Shown piece by piece: positions 10,700 to 51,569 of a DNA stretch of 64,000 bases (its first letter is position 1; each line of letters begins with the position of its first letter). A program made the translations under genes and the position numbers. The DNA is from Alphaproteobacteria bacterium (GTDB lineage Bacteria; Pseudomonadota; Alphaproteobacteria; JASGCL01). Location of the stretch: assembly GCA_051010635.1 (NCBI GenBank), contig JBPCVJ010000002.1, positions 14,848 through 78,847 of the forward strand. Direction: 5' to 3'. The notes under the pieces were generated by a model. The model searched no databases. It saw only the letters and a program-made list of their open reading frames with translations, and was not told where the DNA came from.

Positions 10700-12508
10700 A
10701 TGCTACATCAGGTCAATCATCTTAAAACCAGCCCCATCTATATTACCTTTACTGCCATAACGATAATATTATATGGTTTGGTTATTTTCTTTGCCAAATA
10801 TGGGTTTGATATACTTGATGAGGGGTGGTATCTTTTCACTATCACAGACCCTGATTTTACCAAATCACGGTTTCATTATGGTTTGGGGTATCATTATCTT
10901 TTTCTTTTATTAAATGAAAATATTATTCATTTAAGAATTGCCAATATCATTATTTTTTTCATATTGGCATTCTTATTAGCAAAAGAAATTCTTTTTTCTT
11001 ATTTCAAATCATTCAAATTACGCCCTTATCAATTTTTTATTTTATGCGTGGCAATGGCATCCATATCATTATTATATTTTGTTATCATTTACACACCCAG
11101 TTATAATTCTCTTGCTATCAAAGCCCTCATCATTATAGCCATAGGTCTTATCAATATCCTTAATCACCCTACGCCAAAATTAAAAAAATGGTGGCAACAA
11201 AATAGGTGGGGTGCATTAATTTTAGGATTTGGCATGTTTTTACTTTTTCTTGCCAAACCATCATCATTTTTAGCTGTTTGTTTTTTTCTATTGATGATAT
11301 TTTTATTTTATAAATCATCTAGACTGCTCTTTATAATAGCTGGCATCGCAAGCAGTTCACTATTTTCCATTTATATTATTTTATATTTTGAAGCCGATAT
11401 TATCAAATATATTGAAGAAACAAAAAACACTATCATCGCCCTTCATAAGTTAGATCGCCATTATACATGGATCACTCAATTAAACCTATTGCGGGGGATT
11501 TACATACCCAACATAGCATATATTTTCCTTGCCCTGCCCCTCATATATAAAATAGCACTTACCTATCGCCCATCAAGCTCATGGCTTATCATTCGTTTTA
11601 TCAATCGGTATATTGATATATTTATTATGATATGTTTGTCATTGGGTATAGGTTTGGTAAAACCTTCTCATGTATATGCTTTACAAACTTTTTTTGCCAT
11701 CATGATAGTTTATTGGGCTATTTTGATAAATATATTTCACAATAATAAATTCATTGACCAATTATTAAACCCCAAGATATTTGCCATTATATTATTTTGT
11801 TTTTTATCACCCTATCTATTTGCCTTTGGCACAGCCAATATTATATTGTTTCAAATGTGCTTAGGCGCAATTTTATTTGCATTATGCGCTATTTTATTAT
11901 TATCATTTTTACCAAACAAGCCAAATTATCTTTATATCGGTATTTTATTTTCACAATTATTAACTTTTTATTGCACCACCTATTATATCCACCACCCTTA
12001 TCGCCATATTTCTTTTTTTTCTAACCAATTGGCACCATTAAAATTTTATGATAGCCATAACAAACCCTACTACCTCACCGTATCACAAAATTATAAAAAA
12101 CTAATAGAAAAAAGTCGGTCAATTTTTTATAATAATGGTTTTGCCGCAGGAACGCCCATTATAGATGCAACAGGTGTAGCAACCGGAATTATATTTGCGC
12201 TTGATGCCACCCCATTGGGGCGATATTTTTTAATTACCGAAACTGCTATCAAACATGATATTAAACAAAATCAATGCGATAGAATTGCAAAATCTTGGCT
12301 GATGACCATGCCAAGCCGCACAAATGACCTTTGGGGCGTTGTGCCATTACGCCCCAAAGAAATATTAAAAACCTATCATGCCGACCTAAAAACCGATTAT
12401 GATTTTATAGGCAATATCACGGCTTTAAATTTTCGCACCAAAGGCAAAACCGAAACCATCAATTTCTATCGCCCCAAACCTATACTAAAAACCAAATGTA
12501 AAAAATAA
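10700..12508 (+). CDS. GT-C-like polytopic membrane glycosyltransferase (ArnT/PMT-like architecture)
   Basis: 602 aa with more than 10 TM segments. TM1 is followed immediately by the acidic motif FDILDEGWY, the position of the catalytic DE/DD in GT-C enzymes. Lys-rich C-terminal tail. Confidence 0.5.
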   Translation: MLHQVNHLKTSPIYITFTAITIILYGLVIFFAKYGFDILDEGWYLFTITDPDFTKSRFHYGLGYHYLFLLLNENIIHLRIANIIIFFILAFLLAKEILFSYFKSFKLRPYQFFILCVAMASISLLYFVIIYTPSYNSLAIKALIIIAIGLINILNHPTPKLKKWWQQNRWGALILGFGMFLLFLAKPSSFLAVCFFLLMIFLFYKSSRLLFIIAGIASSSLFSIYIILYFEADIIKYIEETKNTIIALHKLDRHYTWITQLNLLRGIYIPNIAYIFLALPLIYKIALTYRPSSSWLIIRFINRYIDIFIMICLSLGIGLVKPSHVYALQTFFAIMIVYWAILINIFHNNKFIDQLLNPKIFAIILFCFLSPYLFAFGTANIILFQMCLGAILFALCAILLLSFLPNKPNYLYIGILFSQLLTFYCTTYYIHHPYRHISFFSNQLAPLKFYDSHNKPYYLTVSQNYKKLIEKSRSIFYNNGFAAGTPIIDATGVATGIIFALDATPLGRYFLITETAIKHDIKQNQCDRIAKSWLMTMPSRTNDLWGVVPLRPKEILKTYHADLKTDYDFIGNITALNFRTKGKTETINFYRPKPILKTKCKK

Positions 12509-12535
12509 AATCAATGTTCAATTTATCCCATGCGA

Positions 12536-13966
12536 TTAACATTCTGGCAGGGCAACCGAAACTTTACTGGCAAGCCCACCCTCGGAGGTTTCTTTGTATT
12601 TATGCATCATATCCTTCCCCGTTTCCATCATGGTTTCAATCACCTTATCCAAACTCACCAGATGCTCGCCATTGCCATGTAAGGCAAGGCGTGAAGCATT
12701 GATAGCCTTCACCGCACCCATGGTGTTGCGTTCAATGCATGGCACCTGCACCAAACCCTTTATCGGATCACAAGTTAGACCAAGATTATGCTCCATACCT
12801 ATTTCGGCAGCATTTTCTACCTGCTCAACCGAACCACCCATGGCTGCCGTCAATCCCGCAGCCGCCATAGAACAAGCCACACCAACCTCCCCTTGGCAAC
12901 CCACTTCGGCTGCCGATATGGAAGCATTTTTTTTATAAAGCATACCTATTGCCGCAGCGGTTAGCATAAAAATTCGCATATTTTTTATATCCTTACCACC
13001 TGGCACAAATCTATGGTAATAAGCCATCACAGCAGGAATAACCCCTGCCGCACCATTGGTCGGGGCGGTAACCACACGACCACCAGCGGCATTTTCTTCA
13101 TTCACTGCTAGGGCAAACACATTCACCCAATCCATGGTTTTCATAGGAATTTCATCAAGCTCCACATCGCCCAATTTCATTTTTATTTCTTGATTCGATT
13201 TTTCTAAATTATCGGCTATTTGTTTGGCACGCCGCCGAATATTAAGCCCACCGGGCAAAATTCCTTCTTGTTGTATGCCACGCTCAATAGAATTGTTCAT
13301 CGCCTGCCAAATATTATCTATAGATTTTTCAATATCTTCTTGCTTACGCCACACCAATTCATTTTCCATCAATAGTTCGGCAATGGTAATATTTTTTTTC
13401 TTGGTGATGCTTAACAATTCTTCGGCACTGTGAAAAATATTGGGCAAAACCACATTGCTTGATGCAGCGGCATTGCTAACGCCGCGGTTAAATTCTTCAT
13501 CGCTTAATACAAAACCTCCCCCCACCGAATAATATGTGTCTTGATAAATCAATTTGCCATTTTTATCGGTGGCAATAAATTCCATCGTATTGGAGTGTTT
13601 TTCTTTAAATTCGCCATAACGAAAATCCAAATGTTTTTCATAAATAAACTCAATTTCATGTTGCTGATGAAGCAAAAGTTTTTTGGATTTTTTGACATGT
13701 TGAATCTTATTTTCAACCAAATTAGGGTCGGTTTCATCTGGTTTTTCGCCCATCAAACCAAGCACAATGGCACGGTCGGTGGCATGCCCCAACCCCGTCA
13801 TAGCCAACGAGCCATATAGTTTCACCGTCAATTCAGCCACATGGTTTAATTTTTTTTGGGTTACCAAATCAGCCACATACCGATTTGCTGCCACCATAGG
13901 CCCCACCGTGTGCGAACTAGACGGCCCAATACCAATTTTAAATAAATCAAAAACCGATAGATGCAT
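12536..13966 (-). CDS. sdaA: L-serine dehydratase, single-chain Fe-S type
   Basis: [24 protein letters not shown] is the canonical SdaA N-terminus, and Cys-containing beta-domain motifs are present. Start at ATG complement 13964-13966. Confidence 0.9.
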
Positions 13967-41047: not shown

Positions 41048-41130
41048 CTTGCGATATAGCCTATAGAGATGTTATATTAGATGAAGATTAGAATCTTACC
41101 ACTTGCGATATAGCCGTAAAAATGTTATAT
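41048..41130 (+). promoter_or_regulatory. Imperfect direct repeat (2 x about 29 bp, 54-bp period) upstream of the toxin-antitoxin pair; candidate operator/promoter
   Basis: CTTGCGATATAGCC-TATAGAG-ATGTTATAT at 41048-41077 and CTTGCGATATAGCC-GTAAAAA-ATGTTATAT at 41102-41130, read directly. Confidence 0.35.
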
Positions 41131-41171
41131 CAAACAAAAGGGGGAAAAACTGTGAAAAAGGCAAAAAAACT

Positions 41172-41342
41172 ATGACTGATAAAAACACAACTAATATAAA
41201 ACCCAAAAAAAATATTGGGAAAAAAATGGCTACTGCCGAACCGTCTGGCTTGACCGAAAAACAAAAGGCAGATATTGAATTTGTGGTAAATGATATTTAT
41301 CGTAGATACCCCATTACCATGCGAAAATTAGCCGATGGTTGA
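41172..41342 (+). CDS. Putative antitoxin partner of the Doc-family toxin (Phd-like position)
   Basis: Small ORF (56 aa from ATG 41172; the TTG-initiated ORF from 41103 runs inside the repeat). Its stop overlaps the Doc gene start by 8 nt, the typical type II TA arrangement. No sequence-level family match made. Confidence 0.45.
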   Translation: MTDKNTTNIKPKKNIGKKMATAEPSGLTEKQKADIEFVVNDIYRRYPITMRKLADG

Positions 41343-41784
41343 TTCTGTCAAGTCTCTTTTTGTTGAAGAAATTAAGGCATTAACTATCATTGCACAAAAA
41401 AAGGCGGTTGAAAAAAAACATGAGCCTATTCCTGATTTTTCGACCCGTTATGATGGAAAATTGGAAAGTTGTTTAAACACACCCTTTACCAGTTTTGGTG
41501 AGGTTGATGTCTACCCTGATTTGCCAGCAAAAGCATCTATTTTGTTTTATTTGATGGTTAAAAACCACCCCTTTCAAAATGGTAATAAAAGAATAGCTGT
41601 TATAACTTTGGGTTATTTTTTATACAAAAACCAGCATATTTTATATATACCAGATGCAAATTTATACCAATTAGCAACATTCGTTGCCGCGTCCGAGTCT
41701 GAAAAAAAAGACTATATGATGAGTATATTAAAAGGTCTTATAGGTTATTTTATGAAACCAGCAACCCCCAAACAATCTAATTGA
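41335..41784 (+). CDS. Doc/Fic-family toxin (death-on-curing-like)
   Basis: NHPFQNGNKRIAV matches the Doc motif HxFx(D/N)GNKR; 149 aa. Confidence 0.7.
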   Translation: MVDSVKSLFVEEIKALTIIAQKKAVEKKHEPIPDFSTRYDGKLESCLNTPFTSFGEVDVYPDLPAKASILFYLMVKNHPFQNGNKRIAVITLGYFLYKNQHILYIPDANLYQLATFVAASESEKKDYMMSILKGLIGYFMKPATPKQSN

Positions 41785-41790
41785 CCAATA

Positions 41791-42120
41791 TTGGTGGTTA
41801 AAAAATGGTTGAAAAAAAATACTGGTTCTGTTAAAAAAAATTCTATGCAGATATTACAAAAAACTATCAGACGGGTGAGGCGAATACAAACCATTGATAG
41901 AATCATTCATAAAATTAGTGATAAAAAAATTGATAACATTCTTTCTTCGCCCTTCATTAAAAAAATGGGGCAAAATATAAAACATTCTTTACCAAGTTAT
42001 TTTTGGGGGGATAATTGGTTACCAACACATATTTCACAATGGAGTATCAATATGACGCTTCAATCAATTGAGGCTTTGCCCGAATCGTTGCTTAATATCA
42101 TTAAAAAAAATGAAATATAA
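41791..42120 (+). CDS. Hypothetical basic protein (109 aa)
   Basis: ORF only; Lys/Arg-rich N-terminus; no motif recognised. Confidence 0.3.
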   Translation: MVVKKWLKKNTGSVKKNSMQILQKTIRRVRRIQTIDRIIHKISDKKIDNILSSPFIKKMGQNIKHSLPSYFWGDNWLPTHISQWSINMTLQSIEALPESLLNIIKKNEI

Positions 42121-42913
42121 TTTAGATCACCTAAATCAACCAGAAAATCAAATCGTGGAAGGTCCTATCCAAGATGATGATGCGTTATTTTTGTTTGCTA
42201 TCATAAGATCTATGGAAATAAGACGCATATTAGAAATTGGTGGATTATCAGGTTATTCGGCAACAAATTTTTTAAAAGCTTTTCGTGAACCAAGTCAATC
42301 GGTGGTTTATACGGTGGATCGCAAGCCTGTTCCCAAAATTGCCGATAACCATCAAGTCATTGTAAAGGATGCAAGATATATCACCATGCAAGATATTGGC
42401 AATCAGCCGCTTGATATGATTTTTTTTGATTGCCATGATTATTATGTGCAAATGGCAATATATAATAATTTTGTCAAAAATGGCATCATCACCAATAAAA
42501 CGCTTTTGGTATTGCACGACACCGATACCATTAAAGTAAAACCCGATGAATTGCCACATAGCAAAAAAAGAAAATATTGGAATAAGCGCGAAAGACTCCT
42601 ACATGATTATTCATTGCCACCAGATAAAAAAAATGGCGAATATCTAGAATGCGCCCATCAACCAGTTGAGCGTGATATGGTAAATAAATTAACTTCTTTG
42701 GGTTATCACCCATTTTCGTTGCATGGTATCAAGCAAAATATAACTAGCAAAAAACCCTATACCTATGGCACCACGGTGATGCAAAAATTTAAAAAATTAC
42801 CCTTGCCCAAACAATATCTACGAATAAGAAAAAGAACAATGTGGCTAAAAAAAAATGCCTATTTTTTATATAAACCCTTGCGGAAAATTTATAAAAAAAT
42901 TCAAAAAAAATAA
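42110..42913 (+). CDS. Class I SAM-dependent methyltransferase, CmcI/O-methyltransferase-family-3-like
   Basis: Motif I ILEIGGLSGYSA, then DMIFFDCHDYYVQMAIYNNFVKNGIITNKTLLVLHDTD (the D-x-IF-x-D-x-H-x-Y ... VVDD pattern of the CmcI family). Start at MKYNLDHL (42110). Lys-rich C-terminal 80 aa. Confidence 0.6.
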   Translation: MKYNLDHLNQPENQIVEGPIQDDDALFLFAIIRSMEIRRILEIGGLSGYSATNFLKAFREPSQSVVYTVDRKPVPKIADNHQVIVKDARYITMQDIGNQPLDMIFFDCHDYYVQMAIYNNFVKNGIITNKTLLVLHDTDTIKVKPDELPHSKKRKYWNKRERLLHDYSLPPDKKNGEYLECAHQPVERDMVNKLTSLGYHPFSLHGIKQNITSKKPYTYGTTVMQKFKKLPLPKQYLRIRKRTMWLKKNAYFLYKPLRKIYKKIQKK

Positions 42914-42917
42914 TCAT

Positions 42918-44969
42918 TCATTCTTGTAATTCTAATCGCCAATAGATGATGGTTTTTCCCGGTGCGGTTTGCCCTGATAACATCATCACTTGGCAAGGTT
43001 CTTTGATAAAATTATTCAAAAAAAATCCTTTGGTCAAAGAAAGGGTTGCCCCCCTTGCCAACAATCGCCCACCCGATTTATCGCTTGATTGCAAAAAAAC
43101 CTCTTGCAATGATGTCATCTTACTTTCTAATTTTTTATCAGGATGTTCACTAAAAATAAGCGGTTCAATAATCACCCCGCCCATATTCTGTTTGTTGCCC
43201 TTTATATTATCCTTATCATGGTTTTTTAGCGATCTCTGCCAATGCTGTTCCAAATCACTAATATGCGAATCGCTTTTGCCAAAAGCCTTCACCGCGGGCG
43301 ATAATGGCAATAGCAAAAAAAAATCCATACCACCAGGGGCGATAATTGTTTCCATCACCTTGATAGAAACCTTGCCCGATGTAGGTTTTGGCATAAATAT
43401 TCTTCTTTCCACCATCAGCCGTTGATATTTTTTATCACCCGCTAAAGCACCTAATTTTTTTTCAAGATTTTTTCCGCCATCAAAAAATTTTTTCCCCACC
43501 AACATCTTACCATTTGGCAATAAAAATTTTTGGCAACTGGCAAAATGCCATCCGCCTTTCAATGCAGAATCTATTTCATAAAATTGTATATCATTACCAA
43601 AATAATAAAAATTTTTATTATCAAACCATTTTTTCCACAACAAAGGTTTAAGCATTTTTTCCACCACCTGCCCCATAGCCCCTGCTTTGGCTGGCTGGCT
43701 AGGCAACCACACCCCCGATTCAATAAAAGATTTTTTCTTAAACACCACATCAAAATTCATCATCAAATGGTTATTAATATTTTGGTGTTTTTGCCCCCCC
43801 ACCGCATCAAGGTTATGATGATACCGCCATTTTTGCCAGGGCAATATCATCGGCAATGATTTTTTCATAACCATCTGCGTTGGTTTTTTTATCTTATCAT
43901 GCCCCACCATTGATAAAATAAATTGCCTATCGCTTAACATTAATGGCACATGGGAAAGCCTAACATGTTTGGGCGGAATTTTTGGCATGGTAATTTTTAT
44001 TGACCGCAATTGGTCGTCTATTCTTTCTAAAACTTCACGATAGATCGGGTAATGGTCGCGTAATTGATAATAAAGTTTTTTATCCATCGCCATCTGCAAA
44101 CTATAACGCCAATTTTGTAAAGATTGGCTGATAATTTTTTCATATGTGGCATCAGCACTATTCAATAACCAATGGGTTAGGCTAGCCAAATTCAACAGCA
44201 TCAAAAAAGGCGATGCCATAGGCATCCGCCGATCGGTAGCAAGGTCAAGCAATTCCAAAAGATGATAATGAATTTTTTTACTACGCAACCAAAACACCAC
44301 AGGCAATTCGGCTGGGGATTTTTTTCTTACCATTTTGCGTTGTTGCTCGGCACGATAAAATATATCCAAATGGGTCAAGGCGAATGCTTGATGCAAAGCC
44401 GTTAGATGATATATTTCATAAGTTTTTTTAAAAAATGGCAAAGGAATTTTTTTTTGCATTATCGGCATCAAGTGATCAATGGCTTGTTGTCGCCATTTAC
44501 CCACATCGGCACGCGCCGCATTGTCATCTATGGTGGTTATATCAATCGCTACTATGGAACGCAAAATTAACCCCGCCAATATAGTTATCACCAATCTATC
44601 CACCGCTGGCTGGTGGGATAATATCATATCAACCATTTTATCTTGGCATGGCAACAGATGGTATTTTTTTTGTGCCGACATATCGGTCATATCCAAAGGA
44701 TATCGTTGTGGCAAAATTGCCAAATGCTGTGGCGACAAGTAAGGCAAATGCGATAGGCTGAGGTTTAAAAAATCATAAAAAGATGGTAGAGGAAAATCCA
44801 CCATCTTATCATGGTGGGGGTTATCAACCCCACCCAACCCCAAATCACCAAAAAGATTATCGGGGGTTAATATCACCCTTTCCAATTTTTCAAATAATGA
44901 TTCATTACCCAAAAAAACCGCAGGGGCTATAGCTAAAGAAATCGCCAGAGGTTTTTTTTCTATCACCAT
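42918..44969 (-). CDS. Large conserved hypothetical protein (683 aa), downstream of ubiG and co-oriented with it
   Basis: Long intact ORF separated from the ubiG stop by 22 nt. No TM segments and no motif I can assign. Confidence 0.5.
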   Translation of the reverse strand: MVIEKKPLAISLAIAPAVFLGNESLFEKLERVILTPDNLFGDLGLGGVDNPHHDKMVDFPLPSFYDFLNLSLSHLPYLSPQHLAILPQRYPLDMTDMSAQKKYHLLPCQDKMVDMILSHQPAVDRLVITILAGLILRSIVAIDITTIDDNAARADVGKWRQQAIDHLMPIMQKKIPLPFFKKTYEIYHLTALHQAFALTHLDIFYRAEQQRKMVRKKSPAELPVVFWLRSKKIHYHLLELLDLATDRRMPMASPFLMLLNLASLTHWLLNSADATYEKIISQSLQNWRYSLQMAMDKKLYYQLRDHYPIYREVLERIDDQLRSIKITMPKIPPKHVRLSHVPLMLSDRQFILSMVGHDKIKKPTQMVMKKSLPMILPWQKWRYHHNLDAVGGQKHQNINNHLMMNFDVVFKKKSFIESGVWLPSQPAKAGAMGQVVEKMLKPLLWKKWFDNKNFYYFGNDIQFYEIDSALKGGWHFASCQKFLLPNGKMLVGKKFFDGGKNLEKKLGALAGDKKYQRLMVERRIFMPKPTSGKVSIKVMETIIAPGGMDFFLLLPLSPAVKAFGKSDSHISDLEQHWQRSLKNHDKDNIKGNKQNMGGVIIEPLIFSEHPDKKLESKMTSLQEVFLQSSDKSGGRLLARGATLSLTKGFFLNNFIKEPCQVMMLSGQTAPGKTIIYWRLELQE

Positions 44970-47264: not shown

Positions 47265-47303
47265 AAACTACCTCAAAATAGCAATTATTTTTTTGTAATT
47301 TTT

Positions 47304-48788
47304 GTGAACATTGCTATAAGTATCTATATGAAAAATAAATTATTCTATGGCGATTGCTTGTCAGTTATGCAAGATAAAATGAAACCAGAATCGATTGATT
47401 TAATTTATCTTGACCCGCCTTTCAATTCTAACAAAACCTATAATGTAATTTATAAAGATAGCACAGGGCGACCATTGCCAGAAAATGTTGAAGCCTTTTG
47501 CGATATGTGGGAAATTGATGACGAGAAAGAACGCATTATTCAAAAAATGCCTATTCTAATGATGAAAAGTGGCATAGATAAATCAGCGGCAGAATTATGG
47601 CAATTGTGGATGCAGGCTTTAAGGAATACCCAACCAAAACTATTAGCATATCTTGCCTATATGACCGAACGGCTTTTACAAATGAAATTAATCTTAAAAC
47701 CAACAGGAAGTTTTTTTTATCATTGCGACCCAACCGCTAGCCATTATATCAAAATTATACTTGACGCAATTTTTGGACATCAAAATTTTACCAATGAAAT
47801 TGTTTGGTGTTATAAATCAGGCGGTGCAAGTTCATATTATTTTGCAAAAAAACATGATATTATTTTCTATTATAGAATGTCAAAGGAAAATTTTACTTAT
47901 AACAATGAAAAAGAAAAAAGTTATATGGGCAAAAATTATAAAACGGGTAATAAAAAAGTTAAATTATATAATGACAATAAAGGAATCTATACTTTAGTTA
48001 ATCCCAAAGATTGGTGGCAAATATCAATGATGGCGACCTCATCAAAAAAGCGAATGGGCTATGATACTGAAAAACCGCCTGCACTGCTTGAAAAAATTAT
48101 AAAAGCAAGTAGCAATGAAGAAGATATTATATTTGATCCATTTTGTGGTTGTGCCACTACACTTATTTCGGCACATAAATTAAATAGACAATGGGTAGGA
48201 ATTGATATTGCTTATCACGCCATAGATAAAATTTCACGAAATAGATTGTCACGAGATAACGCCCTAGCTGAAGGGATAGATTATGAAATTGATGGCATAC
48301 CAAACACGATGGAATCGGCAATGGCTCTGTGGGAAAAAGATAAATATCAATTTCAAAAATTTTTTGTTGAATATATTGGCGGTTTTGTAAGTAGCAAAAA
48401 AAGCAATGATGGTGGAGTTGATGGAGTGCTTTATTGGGCTGATGAAGGCAATACAAAAAATTTGCATAAAATGATAATTGAAGTTAAAGGCGGTGAAAAT
48501 ATAGCAAAAAGCGTCATAAGAGATTTGAGAGGAACAATGGAAAAAACAGGGGCACAGATGGCAGGGTTGATAGTAAGAGATATAGGCGATATTCAAAAAA
48601 GAAATTTTATACAAGAAATGGCACAGGCAGGCGATTATCAAGGCAAGAGGGAACGACCCTATACAAGAATGCAACTACTTACCATAGACGAAATTATAGC
48701 AGGCAAAAGATTTGATACCCCCGACCCCGAAAACATAACCATCAAAGGTGCAAAACAAGGTGTCTTACCTGTGGGCGATACCCGATAA
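47304..48788 (+). CDS. Beta-class (N6-adenine/N4-cytosine) DNA methyltransferase fused to a C-terminal Mrr-like PD-(D/E)xK restriction-endonuclease domain
   Basis: Motif IV LIYLDPPF near the N-terminus and motif I IFDPFCGCATTLISAHKLNRQWVGIDI near residue 280 (beta-class order). The C-terminal 190 aa contain SNDGGVDGVLYWADEG..(x)..KMIIEVKGGENIAKSVIRDLRGTMEKTGAQMAGLIV, matching the Mrr catalytic pattern DGGID ... (Q/E)xK ... vr.l.g. Confidence 0.75.
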   Translation: MNIAISIYMKNKLFYGDCLSVMQDKMKPESIDLIYLDPPFNSNKTYNVIYKDSTGRPLPENVEAFCDMWEIDDEKERIIQKMPILMMKSGIDKSAAELWQLWMQALRNTQPKLLAYLAYMTERLLQMKLILKPTGSFFYHCDPTASHYIKIILDAIFGHQNFTNEIVWCYKSGGASSYYFAKKHDIIFYYRMSKENFTYNNEKEKSYMGKNYKTGNKKVKLYNDNKGIYTLVNPKDWWQISMMATSSKKRMGYDTEKPPALLEKIIKASSNEEDIIFDPFCGCATTLISAHKLNRQWVGIDIAYHAIDKISRNRLSRDNALAEGIDYEIDGIPNTMESAMALWEKDKYQFQKFFVEYIGGFVSSKKSNDGGVDGVLYWADEGNTKNLHKMIIEVKGGENIAKSVIRDLRGTMEKTGAQMAGLIVRDIGDIQKRNFIQEMAQAGDYQGKRERPYTRMQLLTIDEIIAGKRFDTPDPENITIKGAKQGVLPVGDTR

Positions 48789-48858
48789 AAAAAACCTTGC
48801 CAAAAAAACTATTTTGGCTTATAATGTTAAAAGACAATAAAAAAAGAGGTTATTATTT

Positions 48859-50001: not shown

Positions 50002-50023
50002 AAAAAAACTTGCAAAATAAAAA

Positions 50024-50382
50024 AGCCGTGGCTCGGCGATTGCAAATATGATAAATATTTGAGGAAAGTCGGGGCTTCGTTTTGGAATCCATTCCGCCTA
50101 ACTGGCGGCGGCATTGTTGGCGACGGCAATGTTAGTGAAAGTGTCACAGAAAATAACCGCCATCATGATGGTAAGGGTGAAAAGGTGGAGTAAGTGCCCA
50201 CCGCCATTTTAGCAATAGAATGGGCAAAGACAAACCAAATGGGAAGCAAGACCAAATAGGACTATCTTATAACTTTAATTCCAAAAAGTTGATAGTCGGG
50301 TTGGTCGCAAGACAATGGTGGCAACGCCATTGCTAGATGAATAATCGCCCAATACAGAACCCCGCTTATGAGCCACGGTATT
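50024..50382 (+). ncRNA. rnpB: RNase P RNA (bacterial type A)
   Basis: P1 pairing agccgtggctc (50024-) with gagccacggt (-50379); P4 signature gaggaaagtcggggcttcg; conserved aagggtgaaaaggtg and acagaaccccgcttat; U-rich tail 50390-50405. Confidence 0.85.
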
Positions 50383-50488
50383 TATTGTAACTACCTTTTT
50401 TGTTTTATCTTATAAAAAAATGTTTTTTTTATTGCAAATGGTGTTAAAAATGCATTAGCTTAACTATAATAGATTTATAAAAAACATC

Positions 50489-51481
50489 ATGGTTATAAAA
50501 TTAGATAAAAAAATCTATGGCAAGTTTTTTACTTGCCAGAATCCGTTTCGTTCTTTTTTATTTCAGCAATGGTTTAAAATGATACCTGCCTATCAAAATC
50601 AAACTATCCTTGAACCATTTGCAGGTGAAAACAATATTGTCAATTTGTTACGCGATGTTGGTATAGGCAATGATTTTAATTCATTTGATATTAACATTCC
50701 ATTAAATAATAAAGCTTCGGATGTTACCATTCAACAGCAAAATACACTAAAAAATTTTCCTAAAAATTATTCTATAGCTATTACCAATCCGCCATATCTT
50801 GCAAAAAATTCTGCAACCCGTGATAAATTGCCTTATCCAAAAATAAAATATGATGATATTTACAAATTCGCCCTTGATATAATGCTAAATCATCTTGATT
50901 TTGTTGCGGCTATTATTCCCGAATCTTTTATTACCTCTGGGTTGTTTCATCACAGACTTTACGGTGTGATTTCTCTTAATTATGAAATGTTTGATGATAC
51001 CGATTGCCCTGTTTGTCTCGCATTATTTATGCCGTTGCGTAATAAACATATTAATCCAAAAGATTTTGTTATTTATTGGGGCGATAAAAAAATTGGTTAT
51101 TATGAAAAATTATCAAAAAACATTATTTCAACACATAAAAGAAGCGATTGGCGTTTTAATGACCCTTCGGGACAAATTGGTCTTTATGCCATAGATACCA
51201 CAGAGGGTGCGACAATTCGTTTTGTGCGTGGTGAAGAAATAAATAGCAAAGAAATAAAAGTAACCAATCGGGGTATAACAAGGATTGGTAAAAACGACAA
51301 TGTTGACAGAGATGATATTATTAACAGAGCAAATGATGTTCTTACTATTTATCGCAAAGAAACTTATGATATTTTAATGACAGCTTTTCGTGGATTAAGA
51401 AAAGATGGCTACTACAGGCGACGATTATCTTTTTATCAAGCCAATCAAATTCTTACCCACGCATTAGCACAATATGTATAA
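50489..51481 (+). CDS. Gamma-class N6-adenine-specific DNA methyltransferase (orphan; no adjacent restriction endonuclease gene)
   Basis: N-terminal GKFFTCQNPFRSFLF (the G-x-(F/Y)-(F/Y)-TP helper motif of N6-A DNA MTases), motif I ILEPFAGENN, motif IV IAITNPPYLAKN about 58 aa later (gamma order); 330 aa. Confidence 0.65.
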   Translation: MVIKLDKKIYGKFFTCQNPFRSFLFQQWFKMIPAYQNQTILEPFAGENNIVNLLRDVGIGNDFNSFDINIPLNNKASDVTIQQQNTLKNFPKNYSIAITNPPYLAKNSATRDKLPYPKIKYDDIYKFALDIMLNHLDFVAAIIPESFITSGLFHHRLYGVISLNYEMFDDTDCPVCLALFMPLRNKHINPKDFVIYWGDKKIGYYEKLSKNIISTHKRSDWRFNDPSGQIGLYAIDTTEGATIRFVRGEEINSKEIKVTNRGITRIGKNDNVDRDDIINRANDVLTIYRKETYDILMTAFRGLRKDGYYRRRLSFYQANQILTHALAQYV

Positions 51482-51569
51482 TCATTTTTAATTTAATTCA
51501 TAAACCAACTACCCGCAAAATAAAAAAAAGGGGAAAGCGATGTTTGTTCGGTTGGCAAGGCAATCTATA

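Follow-up and report, generated by a model that had tools for sequence, protein, structure and literature searches.

Does the open reading frame (ORF) at positions 47304 to 48788 of this alphaproteobacterial DNA encode a DNA methyltransferase (MTase) that happens to carry an extra domain, or does it encode an entire restriction-modification (R-M) system in one polypeptide? The window analyzed here is the whole stretch of 64,000 nucleotides from contig JBPCVJ010000002.1 (assembly GCA_051010635.1), in which a gene located between lysC and popZ is predicted to join a β-class MTase to a C-terminal nuclease-fold domain of the Mrr type. A preliminary description of this locus had proposed such a fusion and had left two options side by side: a CcrM-related cell-cycle MTase that gained a new module, or a compact restriction or anti-phage module. 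The second of these remains the best-supported reading, and we estimate a probability of roughly one in two that the protein is a self-contained, single-polypeptide R-M enzyme of reverse order, wherein the MTase comes first and the nuclease last.

The ORF is intact in the ORF list of the window, where it runs on the forward strand from a GTG at 47304 to 48788 and specifies 494 amino acids. Residue numbers throughout are counted from this GTG. A database copy with 100% identity (P0001, 'MAG: DNA methyltransferase [Alphaproteobacteria bacterium]') is 486 amino acids long and starts with the ATG at 47328 (MKNKLFYGDC), and the homologs begin at the same point as MN(K/R)LYYGDC. Because P0001 and all homologs start there, the initial eight codons from the GTG are probably untranslated. 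The order of the two parts, an MTase and then an Mrr-type PD-(D/E)xK domain, was confirmed by Pfam and by hhalign, and the Pfam models suggested for this purpose in the preliminary description (PF01555 and PF04471) both score above their gathering thresholds. The motifs quoted earlier (DPPF, motif I, DGGVDGV, and IIEVKGG) are found in the translation at the places assigned to them, although two details needed correction. Motif I lies where it was reported but reads F-C-G-C-A (in DPFCGCA) and not FxGxG, and the nuclease motifs have the proposed layout but are separated by 15 residues (DGGVDGV to IIEVKGG; 19 residues from D373 to E393) and not by about 13. The features of the gene, all on the forward strand, are as follows.

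47328..48788, +, the whole gene, a fusion of a β-class MTase and an Mrr-type nuclease, 486 amino acids from the ATG (from the ORF list, P0001, and homolog starts)
47328..47867, +, N-terminal half of the MTase, residues 9-188, with motif IV and a helical insertion (from Pfam and invariant columns)
47412..47423, +, motif IV DPPF, residues 37-40, the amino-MTase catalytic loop (from the translation)
47868..48047, +, hypervariable region that separates motif VIII from motif X, residues 189-248, presumably the target-recognition domain (TRD; from low column conservation)
48048..48278, +, C-terminal half of the MTase, residues 249-325, with motif X (T255-x-K257-P258) and motif I (from phmmer alignments)
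48135..48155, +, motif I DPFCGCA, residues 278-284, the S-adenosylmethionine-binding site (from the translation)
48279..48728, +, Mrr-type PD-(D/E)xK nuclease-fold domain, residues 326-475
48408..48428, +, DGGVDGV, residues 369-375, in which D373 is the putative metal-binding Asp of the PD motif (from conservation and the Mrr alignment)
Residues 391-397, +, IIEVKGG (from the translation)
48480..48488, +, E393-V394-K395, the (E/Q)xK motif that would form one half of the nuclease active site (from conservation and the Mrr alignment)
48729..48785, +, C-terminal tail, residues 476-494, poorly conserved (0.34) and predicted to be disordered, with a predicted local distance difference test score (pLDDT) of 28-30 over residues 481-494

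The MTase part is an intact β-class amino-MTase that is predicted to generate N6-methyladenine. The N6_N4_Mtase model (PF01555) matches residues 31 to 308 with an E value of 3e-40 (138.9 bits against a gathering threshold of 26.7). Conservation was scored on an alignment of 200 family members that share 30 to 58% identity, and among these the DPPF of motif IV is nearly fixed (D37 in 200, P38 in 197, P39 in 200, and F40 in 197). Enzymes that methylate N6 of adenine typically have a D at the start of this motif. Family alignments also show T255, K257, and P258 of motif X to be invariant, together with D278 and C283 of motif I. Motif IV at residues 37 to 40, the variable region at 189 to 248, and motif I at 278 to 284 follow one another in the order that defines the β class. 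Residues 250 to 306 align by phmmer with M.BceJIV, RsrI, MboIIA, and CcrM, and comparisons of sequence and of fold both link the MTase part to these enzymes and to Type III Mod subunits. An insertion after motif IV (residues ~45 to 130, nucleotides ~47436 to 47693) includes the invariant residues Y46, N47, T54, G55, A64, F65, D67, and W69, and the predicted structure places three helices of high pLDDT at residues 73 to 130. According to the phmmer alignments, the solved β-class MTases M.BceJIV and RsrI lack this conserved insertion of ~70 residues. Enzymes of the β class act as dimers and use accessory DNA-binding surfaces contributed by the second subunit (PMC7544214).

The C-terminal third of the protein is best described as a predicted sequence-independent cleavage module of the Mrr/FokI type in which the putative catalytic residues are retained. 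The Mrr_cat model (PF04471) matches residues 363 to 423 of the window protein with 22.7 bits against a gathering threshold of 21, which is a marginal pass. However, the same model is matched by 28 of 37 close homologs (best E value 2.3e-6), and more distant family members and fragments reach 36 to 38 bits. When a profile of 26 C-terminal domains was compared with E. coli K-12 Mrr, hhalign returned a probability of 92.1% and an E value of 6e-7, and the resulting alignment sets DGGVD373G against GDGGIDG and E393-V-K395 against Q-A-K of the E. coli protein. This similarity is far above what chance would produce. The α-β-β-β-α-β core fold is present, and AspBHI and MspJI rank among the top fold matches of the domain.

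The key residues of the nuclease domain are essentially invariant. D369 and D373 are each found in 199 of the 200 aligned family members, G371 in 197, G374 in all 200, V394 and K395 likewise in all 200, and Q457 in 199. Position 393 is occupied by E in 132 sequences, by Q in 38, and by S in 30, where Q is the residue present in E. coli Mrr. The window protein is a member of the clade with ExK at this site, which also retains E337, W343, and E356. Measured in 20-residue blocks, conservation of the nuclease domain is 0.5 to 0.7, near the level of the MTase core. Across these 200 relatives, then, the substitution pattern indicates that both catalytic centers are under joint purifying selection. 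The preliminary description had allowed that the domain could prove to be a degenerate DNA-binding remnant in which the catalytic D/E/K is lost on proper alignment. Because conservation is near that of the MTase core and the D/E/K residues are kept (D373 in 199 and K395 in 200 of the 200), this is not what the alignment reveals.

Conservation within the family is lowest at residues 189 to 248, with column conservation of 0.22 to 0.37 as compared with 0.5 to 0.85 elsewhere, and this region ranges from 55 to 144 amino acids in length. The TRD of β-class MTases occupies the matching position (PMC7544214), and this ~60-residue variable region is likely to be the target-recognition element. Paralogs within single genomes are informative in this regard. 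Their MTase cores are 77 to 97% identical and their nuclease domains are 71 to 97% identical, whereas residues 189 to 248 are only 21 to 45% identical. The sharpest case is the pair P0014 and P0057, with 92, 97, and 97% identity in the segments outside the TRD and 23% within it. Specificity thus appears to diversify by change of the recognition cassette while the nuclease stays constant.

Such paralogs are found in several arrangements. Three copies with different recognition regions lie head to tail in Ca. Tariuqbacter arcticus (locus L079, 4334-9020), and two copies that again differ in their recognition regions are present on opposite strands, ~3.4 kb apart, in a metagenome-assembled genome of the Acidobacteriaceae (locus L056, 5989-7644 and 11061-12677). 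Further multi-copy genomes carry three copies on one 1.98-Mb contig and two copies on one 46-kb contig.

These characteristics are consistent with the following mode of action. The MTase part and its TRD would locate a specific site, acting as a dimer like other β-class enzymes. Sites in the host chromosome would be kept methylated and hence spared. On unmethylated incoming DNA, the two tethered nuclease domains would be brought together to cut at or near the site, since dimerization of the MTase would supply the two nuclease domains that a double-strand cut demands. Cutting of this sort would parallel that by FokI and by the Type IIG/IIL enzymes, with the domain order reversed and a β-class MTase in place of one of the γ class.

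A broader proposal is offered more tentatively than the reading of the single protein. The family may constitute an unrecognized class of minimal (~55 kDa) single-chain R-M enzymes that combine a dimeric β-class adenine MTase with a C-terminal Mrr/FokI-type domain, whose specificity is reprogrammed by swapping a ~60-residue cassette. This class would have thousands of members across most bacterial phyla and would serve as a one-gene defense or addiction module on temperate phages, plasmids, and cassettes flanked by insertion sequences (IS), while being annotated everywhere as a plain 'DNA methyltransferase'.

The family itself is very large. A search of 5.8 billion proteins identified at least 8000 clusters at 90% identity that match the fusion. 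Among the 120 best matches, nearly all are full length (462 to 548 amino acids) and share 47 to 57% identity with the query, its own copy excepted. Full-length relatives come from Alphaproteobacteria, Chloroflexota, Acidobacteriota, Cyanobacteria, Actinomycetota, Aquificaceae, Saccharibacteria, and others. Relatives are also encoded in 28 phage records, including Marinitoga phage MPV1, Streptomyces phages of the genus Likavirus, and Mycobacterium phages Dori and Amgine, and by plasmids of Ca. Megaera polyxenophila and Mesorhizobium (pMLa). The members are named as DNA methyltransferases or methylases (once as 'adenine specific DNA methylase Mod') or as 'hypothetical protein', and a fold search of BFVD gave matches to the MTase core only.

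Searching with the C-terminal domain alone yielded 962 clusters at 50% identity. Among the 150 matches listed, this domain is located towards the C-terminal end in all except P0192 and P0217, where it is N-terminal. Ten of these matches were scanned for other domains, and eight also include the MTase, mostly as N-terminally truncated fragments; the short matches that were scanned are truncated fusions of this type, barring the same two proteins. P0192 was considered as a stand-alone nuclease adjacent to a separate MTase gene and rejected, in that it comes from a contig of 2x coverage whose upstream 1.3 kb is empty and is probably a broken fusion. P0217 is uninformative in this regard because its contig is 913 bp long.

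To define the genetic surroundings of the family, ORFs were called in 80 genomic loci and all neighbors within 5 kb were clustered. No recurrent restriction enzyme, helicase, second MTase, or regulator was found among these neighbors. The sole recurrent neighbor is an IS1595/ISXO2-like transposase, which is present in 9 of the 80 loci and is often located directly downstream. In the closest relatives (L012, and also L007, L011, and L014), the transposase ORF begins 0 to 3 nucleotides after the fusion gene. A 27-nucleotide inverted repeat in L012 (5023-5049 and 7611-7637; 96% complementary) brackets the MTase gene between two IS copies, in a layout that looks like a composite transposon.

Phage copies occupy lysogeny or moron positions. 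The fusion gene of Marinitoga phage MPV1 is directly downstream of a CI-like repressor gene, gp42 of Mycobacterium phage Dori lies between LysB and the integrase, and gp48 of Streptomyces phage Hippo is one small hypothetical gene (gp49) away from a serine integrase gene. A prophage copy is found near a cI-like repressor gene, a BglII R-M pair, and a Dam-type MTase gene. Temperate phages, plasmids, and cassettes flanked by IS are the vehicles of this family, and its other chromosomal copies are solitary. At one locus (L006, 1155-9434), a family member is directly downstream of genes for a 1213-amino-acid HEPN_Swt1-SNF2 helicase and a 1037-amino-acid SACS-like ATPase, with IS110 nearby, and this may be a larger defense operon that recruited the fusion.

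Several observations weigh against the R-M reading. The middle catalytic position of the nuclease (393) is S in ~15% of the family (30 of 200), and conservation of two acidic residues farther upstream, E337 and E356, is confined to the clade of the window protein. NA-iREase1 (PF22722), a model of inactive nucleases, is matched by 18 of 37 members at E values of 0.01 or less, although the window protein itself reaches 20 bits, which is below the threshold of 27, and retains D373 and K395. The conserved D and K of a PD-(D/E)xK fold can bind metal or DNA without cleaving, and phage-borne MTases are usually simple self-protection enzymes. PADLOC recognizes the MTase part alone. Our search of the literature found neither a biochemical or genetic test of any family member nor a description of a β-class MTase with a C-terminal Mrr domain; REBASE was outside this search, and a prior classification there is possible. 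REBASE aside, we know of no described Type IIG or Type IIC enzyme with the layout of the fusion (PMC3185434).

The main alternative, which we consider appreciably less probable than the R-M reading, is that the protein is an orphan DNA adenine MTase that protects phage or plasmid DNA from host restriction, and that its nuclease fold does not cut but is used for nonspecific DNA binding, clamping, or dimerization. An analogy exists in CcrM, whose extra C-terminal domain holds the non-target strand. The matches to the inactive-nuclease model and the S residues at position 393 are consistent with this explanation, as is the fact that the gene is solitary in all 80 loci and is labeled only 'DNA methyltransferase' in phages, plasmids, and genomes. 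Carriage by phages and plasmids fits anti-restriction methylation, and the use of accessory DNA-binding surfaces from a second subunit has precedent among β-class MTases (PMC7544214). Yet the near invariance of D373, V394, and K395, and the retention of (E/Q)xK down to 30% identity, exceed what structural DNA binding should need. Multiple paralogs per genome with swapped TRDs are typical of the turnover of restriction specificity and not of a regulatory orphan. Furthermore, the location of the gene beside that of a repressor or an integrase points to expression in the lysogen, and this would hardly help to protect phage DNA that is being packaged.

We regard as improbable a second alternative, wherein the nuclease is active but is put to a different use, either an Mrr-like attack on foreign methylation or as a toxic nuclease restrained by its own MTase (addiction or abortive infection). 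The closest sequence relative of the C-terminal domain is the methyl-directed EcoKMrr, the modification-dependent enzymes AspBHI and MspJI are among its top fold matches, and the gene acts as a selfish, mobile single-gene cassette. However, Mrr, MspJI, and AspBHI read modified DNA through a separate N-terminal domain (a winged helix or SRA domain; PMC12707154) that is absent here, and the fusion has no recognition module other than the MTase and its TRD, whose targets are unmethylated.

The fusion could also be half of a two-gene system, as the partner of a γ-type MTase encoded downstream or as a Type III Mod subunit that lost its Res partner, but this is less probable still and is essentially excluded. 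Two MTase genes do lie within 3 kb of each other, the PADLOC models for Type III MTases match the fusion (E value 1.6e-36), and its matches in the PDB include EcoP15I Mod. The second gene, at 50489 to 51481, encodes a 330-amino-acid MTase-like protein with the NPPY motif of the γ type and has a G+C content at third codon positions (GC3) of 0.221. Its sole Pfam match is a weak, subthreshold one to Eco57I, but phrog_18657 ('DNA methyltransferase') covers the entire protein with an E value of 6e-47. Its 1543 homologs are mostly unnamed or labeled 'hypothetical protein' and occur in phage-like or mobile contexts. The preliminary description had suggested that this γ-type MTase could be the protective partner of the fusion, a proposal that does not hold. 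The two genes are separated by popZ and an amidase gene, both conserved housekeeping genes, and the 330-amino-acid MTase belongs to a different phage MTase family that has no homolog in any of the 80 loci encoding relatives of the fusion.

The downstream gene also occupies an insertion spot of its own, past popZ and the amidase gene. The gap between the amidase and dehydrogenase genes is a hotspot of variable cargo in this lineage, as seen from the two nearest relatives that were found (loci L092 and L093, whose LysC proteins are 72 and 69% identical to that of the window). The window carries the 330-amino-acid MTase in this gap (50002-51569), whereas L092 carries DUF3800, Exo_endo_phos, and PLDc_2 genes (10711-13785) and L093 a gene for a 465-amino-acid protein with no Pfam match (10749-13592). 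A Res-like helicase-nuclease is neither adjacent to the fusion gene in the window nor recurrent in the 80 loci. In two relatives of the 330-amino-acid MTase, an ORF of 228 or 346 amino acids follows immediately, and it could be the cognate nuclease of MTases of this type; this ORF is absent from the window.

The same two loci also bear on the fusion gene itself. They share a gene order with the window that includes an abhydrolase gene, a hexapeptide transferase gene, a counterpart (~700 amino acids) of an ORF encoding 683 amino acids, a ubiG-like gene, lysC, popZ, the amidase and dehydrogenase genes, valS, and xerD, and all of these genes have orthologs in both L092 and L093. The fusion gene is absent between lysC and popZ in both. 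Because lysC directly precedes popZ in both relatives, the fusion gene is a lineage-specific, single-gene insertion. Its GC3 is 0.267, as compared with 0.35 to 0.45 in the flanking core genes, which is a foreign composition, and the gene is a recent, stand-alone horizontal acquisition. The boundaries of the insertion are these.

47265..47327, +, left junction, 63 nucleotides from the lysC stop codon to the ATG of the fusion gene
48797..48825, +, right boundary, a promoter-like site of popZ, TTGCCA-17-TATAAT (11/12 match to the consensus)

Scans of the 63-nucleotide left junction found no promoter or terminator, so read-through from lysC into the fusion gene is plausible. On the right, the near-consensus σ70 promoter-like site upstream of popZ is shared with L092 and L093, and the insertion just upstream left it intact. 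This site is host sequence and lies outside the inserted gene. Neither direct repeats nor target-site duplications were found above chance level on the two sides of the insertion, where a search yielded only weak AT-rich similarities.

With this history, the proposal that the gene encodes a CcrM-type cell-cycle MTase with an added domain can be dismissed: the alphaproteobacterial host, the β-class MTase, and the location beside popZ, a cell-polarity gene, speak for it, but such a housekeeping role is ruled out by the absence of the gene from this locus in the two closest relatives, by its foreign GC3, and by a score of 65 bits against the cutoff of 830 for the NCBIfam CcrM equivalog, and its nearest homologs are scattered over Chloroflexota, Acidobacteriota, Cyanobacteria, Actinomycetota, and phages.

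Other parts of the window also differ from these relatives or are shared with them. A second insertion of low GC3 (0.27 to 0.30), at 41103 to 42913, is absent from L092 and L093, where the hexapeptide transferase gene abuts the ORF of ~700 amino acids. This insertion consists of a 79-amino-acid ORF that overlaps the gene for a 149-amino-acid protein of the Fic/Doc family (PADLOC PDC-S23, E value 2e-22), followed by a 109-amino-acid ORF and the gene for a 281-amino-acid Methyltransf_24 protein. The 79-amino-acid ORF and the Fic/Doc protein look like a toxin-antitoxin pair. The neighboring ORF of 683 amino acids (42918-44969, reverse strand) has no Pfam or PADLOC match but is kept in L092 and L093, both in sequence (44 to 47% identity) and in its place between the hexapeptide transferase and ubiG-like genes.

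For this genome, the fusion gene is foreign cargo and not a cell-cycle regulator. The copy in the window is an ordinary member of a very large and apparently uncharacterized family, and it is that family, more than this locus, that is of interest. If the nuclease is active, then annotation and defense-finding tools mislabel a very large family of complete restriction systems as orphan MTases. In that event, the counts of restriction systems would change in many phyla, a one-gene module would be added to the defenses that temperate phages give to their lysogens, and the family could offer a compact, modular scaffold for new cutting specificities, wherein a cassette of ~60 amino acids is held between a constant methylase and a constant nuclease. 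If the nuclease is inactive, then the family would be a clear example of a nuclease fold that has been co-opted to help β-class MTases handle DNA.

How, finally, does the fusion compare with systems that are already known? Its MTase part shares with M.BceJIV, M.RsrI, M1.MboII, CcrM, and EcoP15I Mod the order of motifs (IV...X-I), the DPP(Y/F) motif, and significant similarity (E values from 7e-17 to 1e-10; Foldseek E value 1e-14), but none of these proteins carries a nuclease-fold domain. Type III Mod subunits have a similar MTase core, and the fusion differs from them in lacking a Res partner. The nuclease part has its own set of counterparts. EcoKMrr has no MTase, and its Mrr_cat domain is paired with an N-terminal winged helix that reads methylated DNA, whereas the fusion is without such a reader (PMC12707154). 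The Type ISP enzymes LlaBIII and LlaGI carry an Mrr-like nuclease at the N terminus of a helicase-MTase of 1500 amino acids, whereas that of the fusion is C-terminal to a small β-class MTase. In FokI and in MspJI/AspBHI, the recognition modules are non-enzymatic (helix-turn-helix or SRA-like), whereas that of the fusion is an MTase.

Among phage-encoded systems, the prophage-borne Panchino gp28 of the cluster N mycobacteriophages has been described as a 'single-subunit restriction system' with Type-I-like restriction, modification, and specificity domains (PMC12487901). It is a single-gene R-M system with which the lysogen defends itself, as is proposed here for the phage-borne fusions. Its gene occupies the variable middle part of a temperate phage genome, and Dori gp42 is encoded in the equivalent region. 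We considered gp28 as the same kind of system but rejected this assignment, given that it is much larger and has a different, Type-I-like architecture (PMC12487901).

The nearest parallel in organization is provided by the Type IIG/IIL/IIC enzymes, including BpuSI, Eco57I, and the MmeI family. These also have a nuclease and an MTase in one chain without partner genes, a FokI-like PD-ExK cleavage domain, and an exchangeable recognition region that sets specificity. The canonical Type IIG/IIC layout is nevertheless not that of the fusion. Those enzymes are ~900 to 1100 amino acids long and have an N-terminal nuclease, a γ-class MTase, and a C-terminal, Type-I-like recognition domain (PMC3185434), whereas the fusion, at 486 amino acids, is half that size and begins with a β-class MTase, holds its recognition region internally, and ends with the nuclease.

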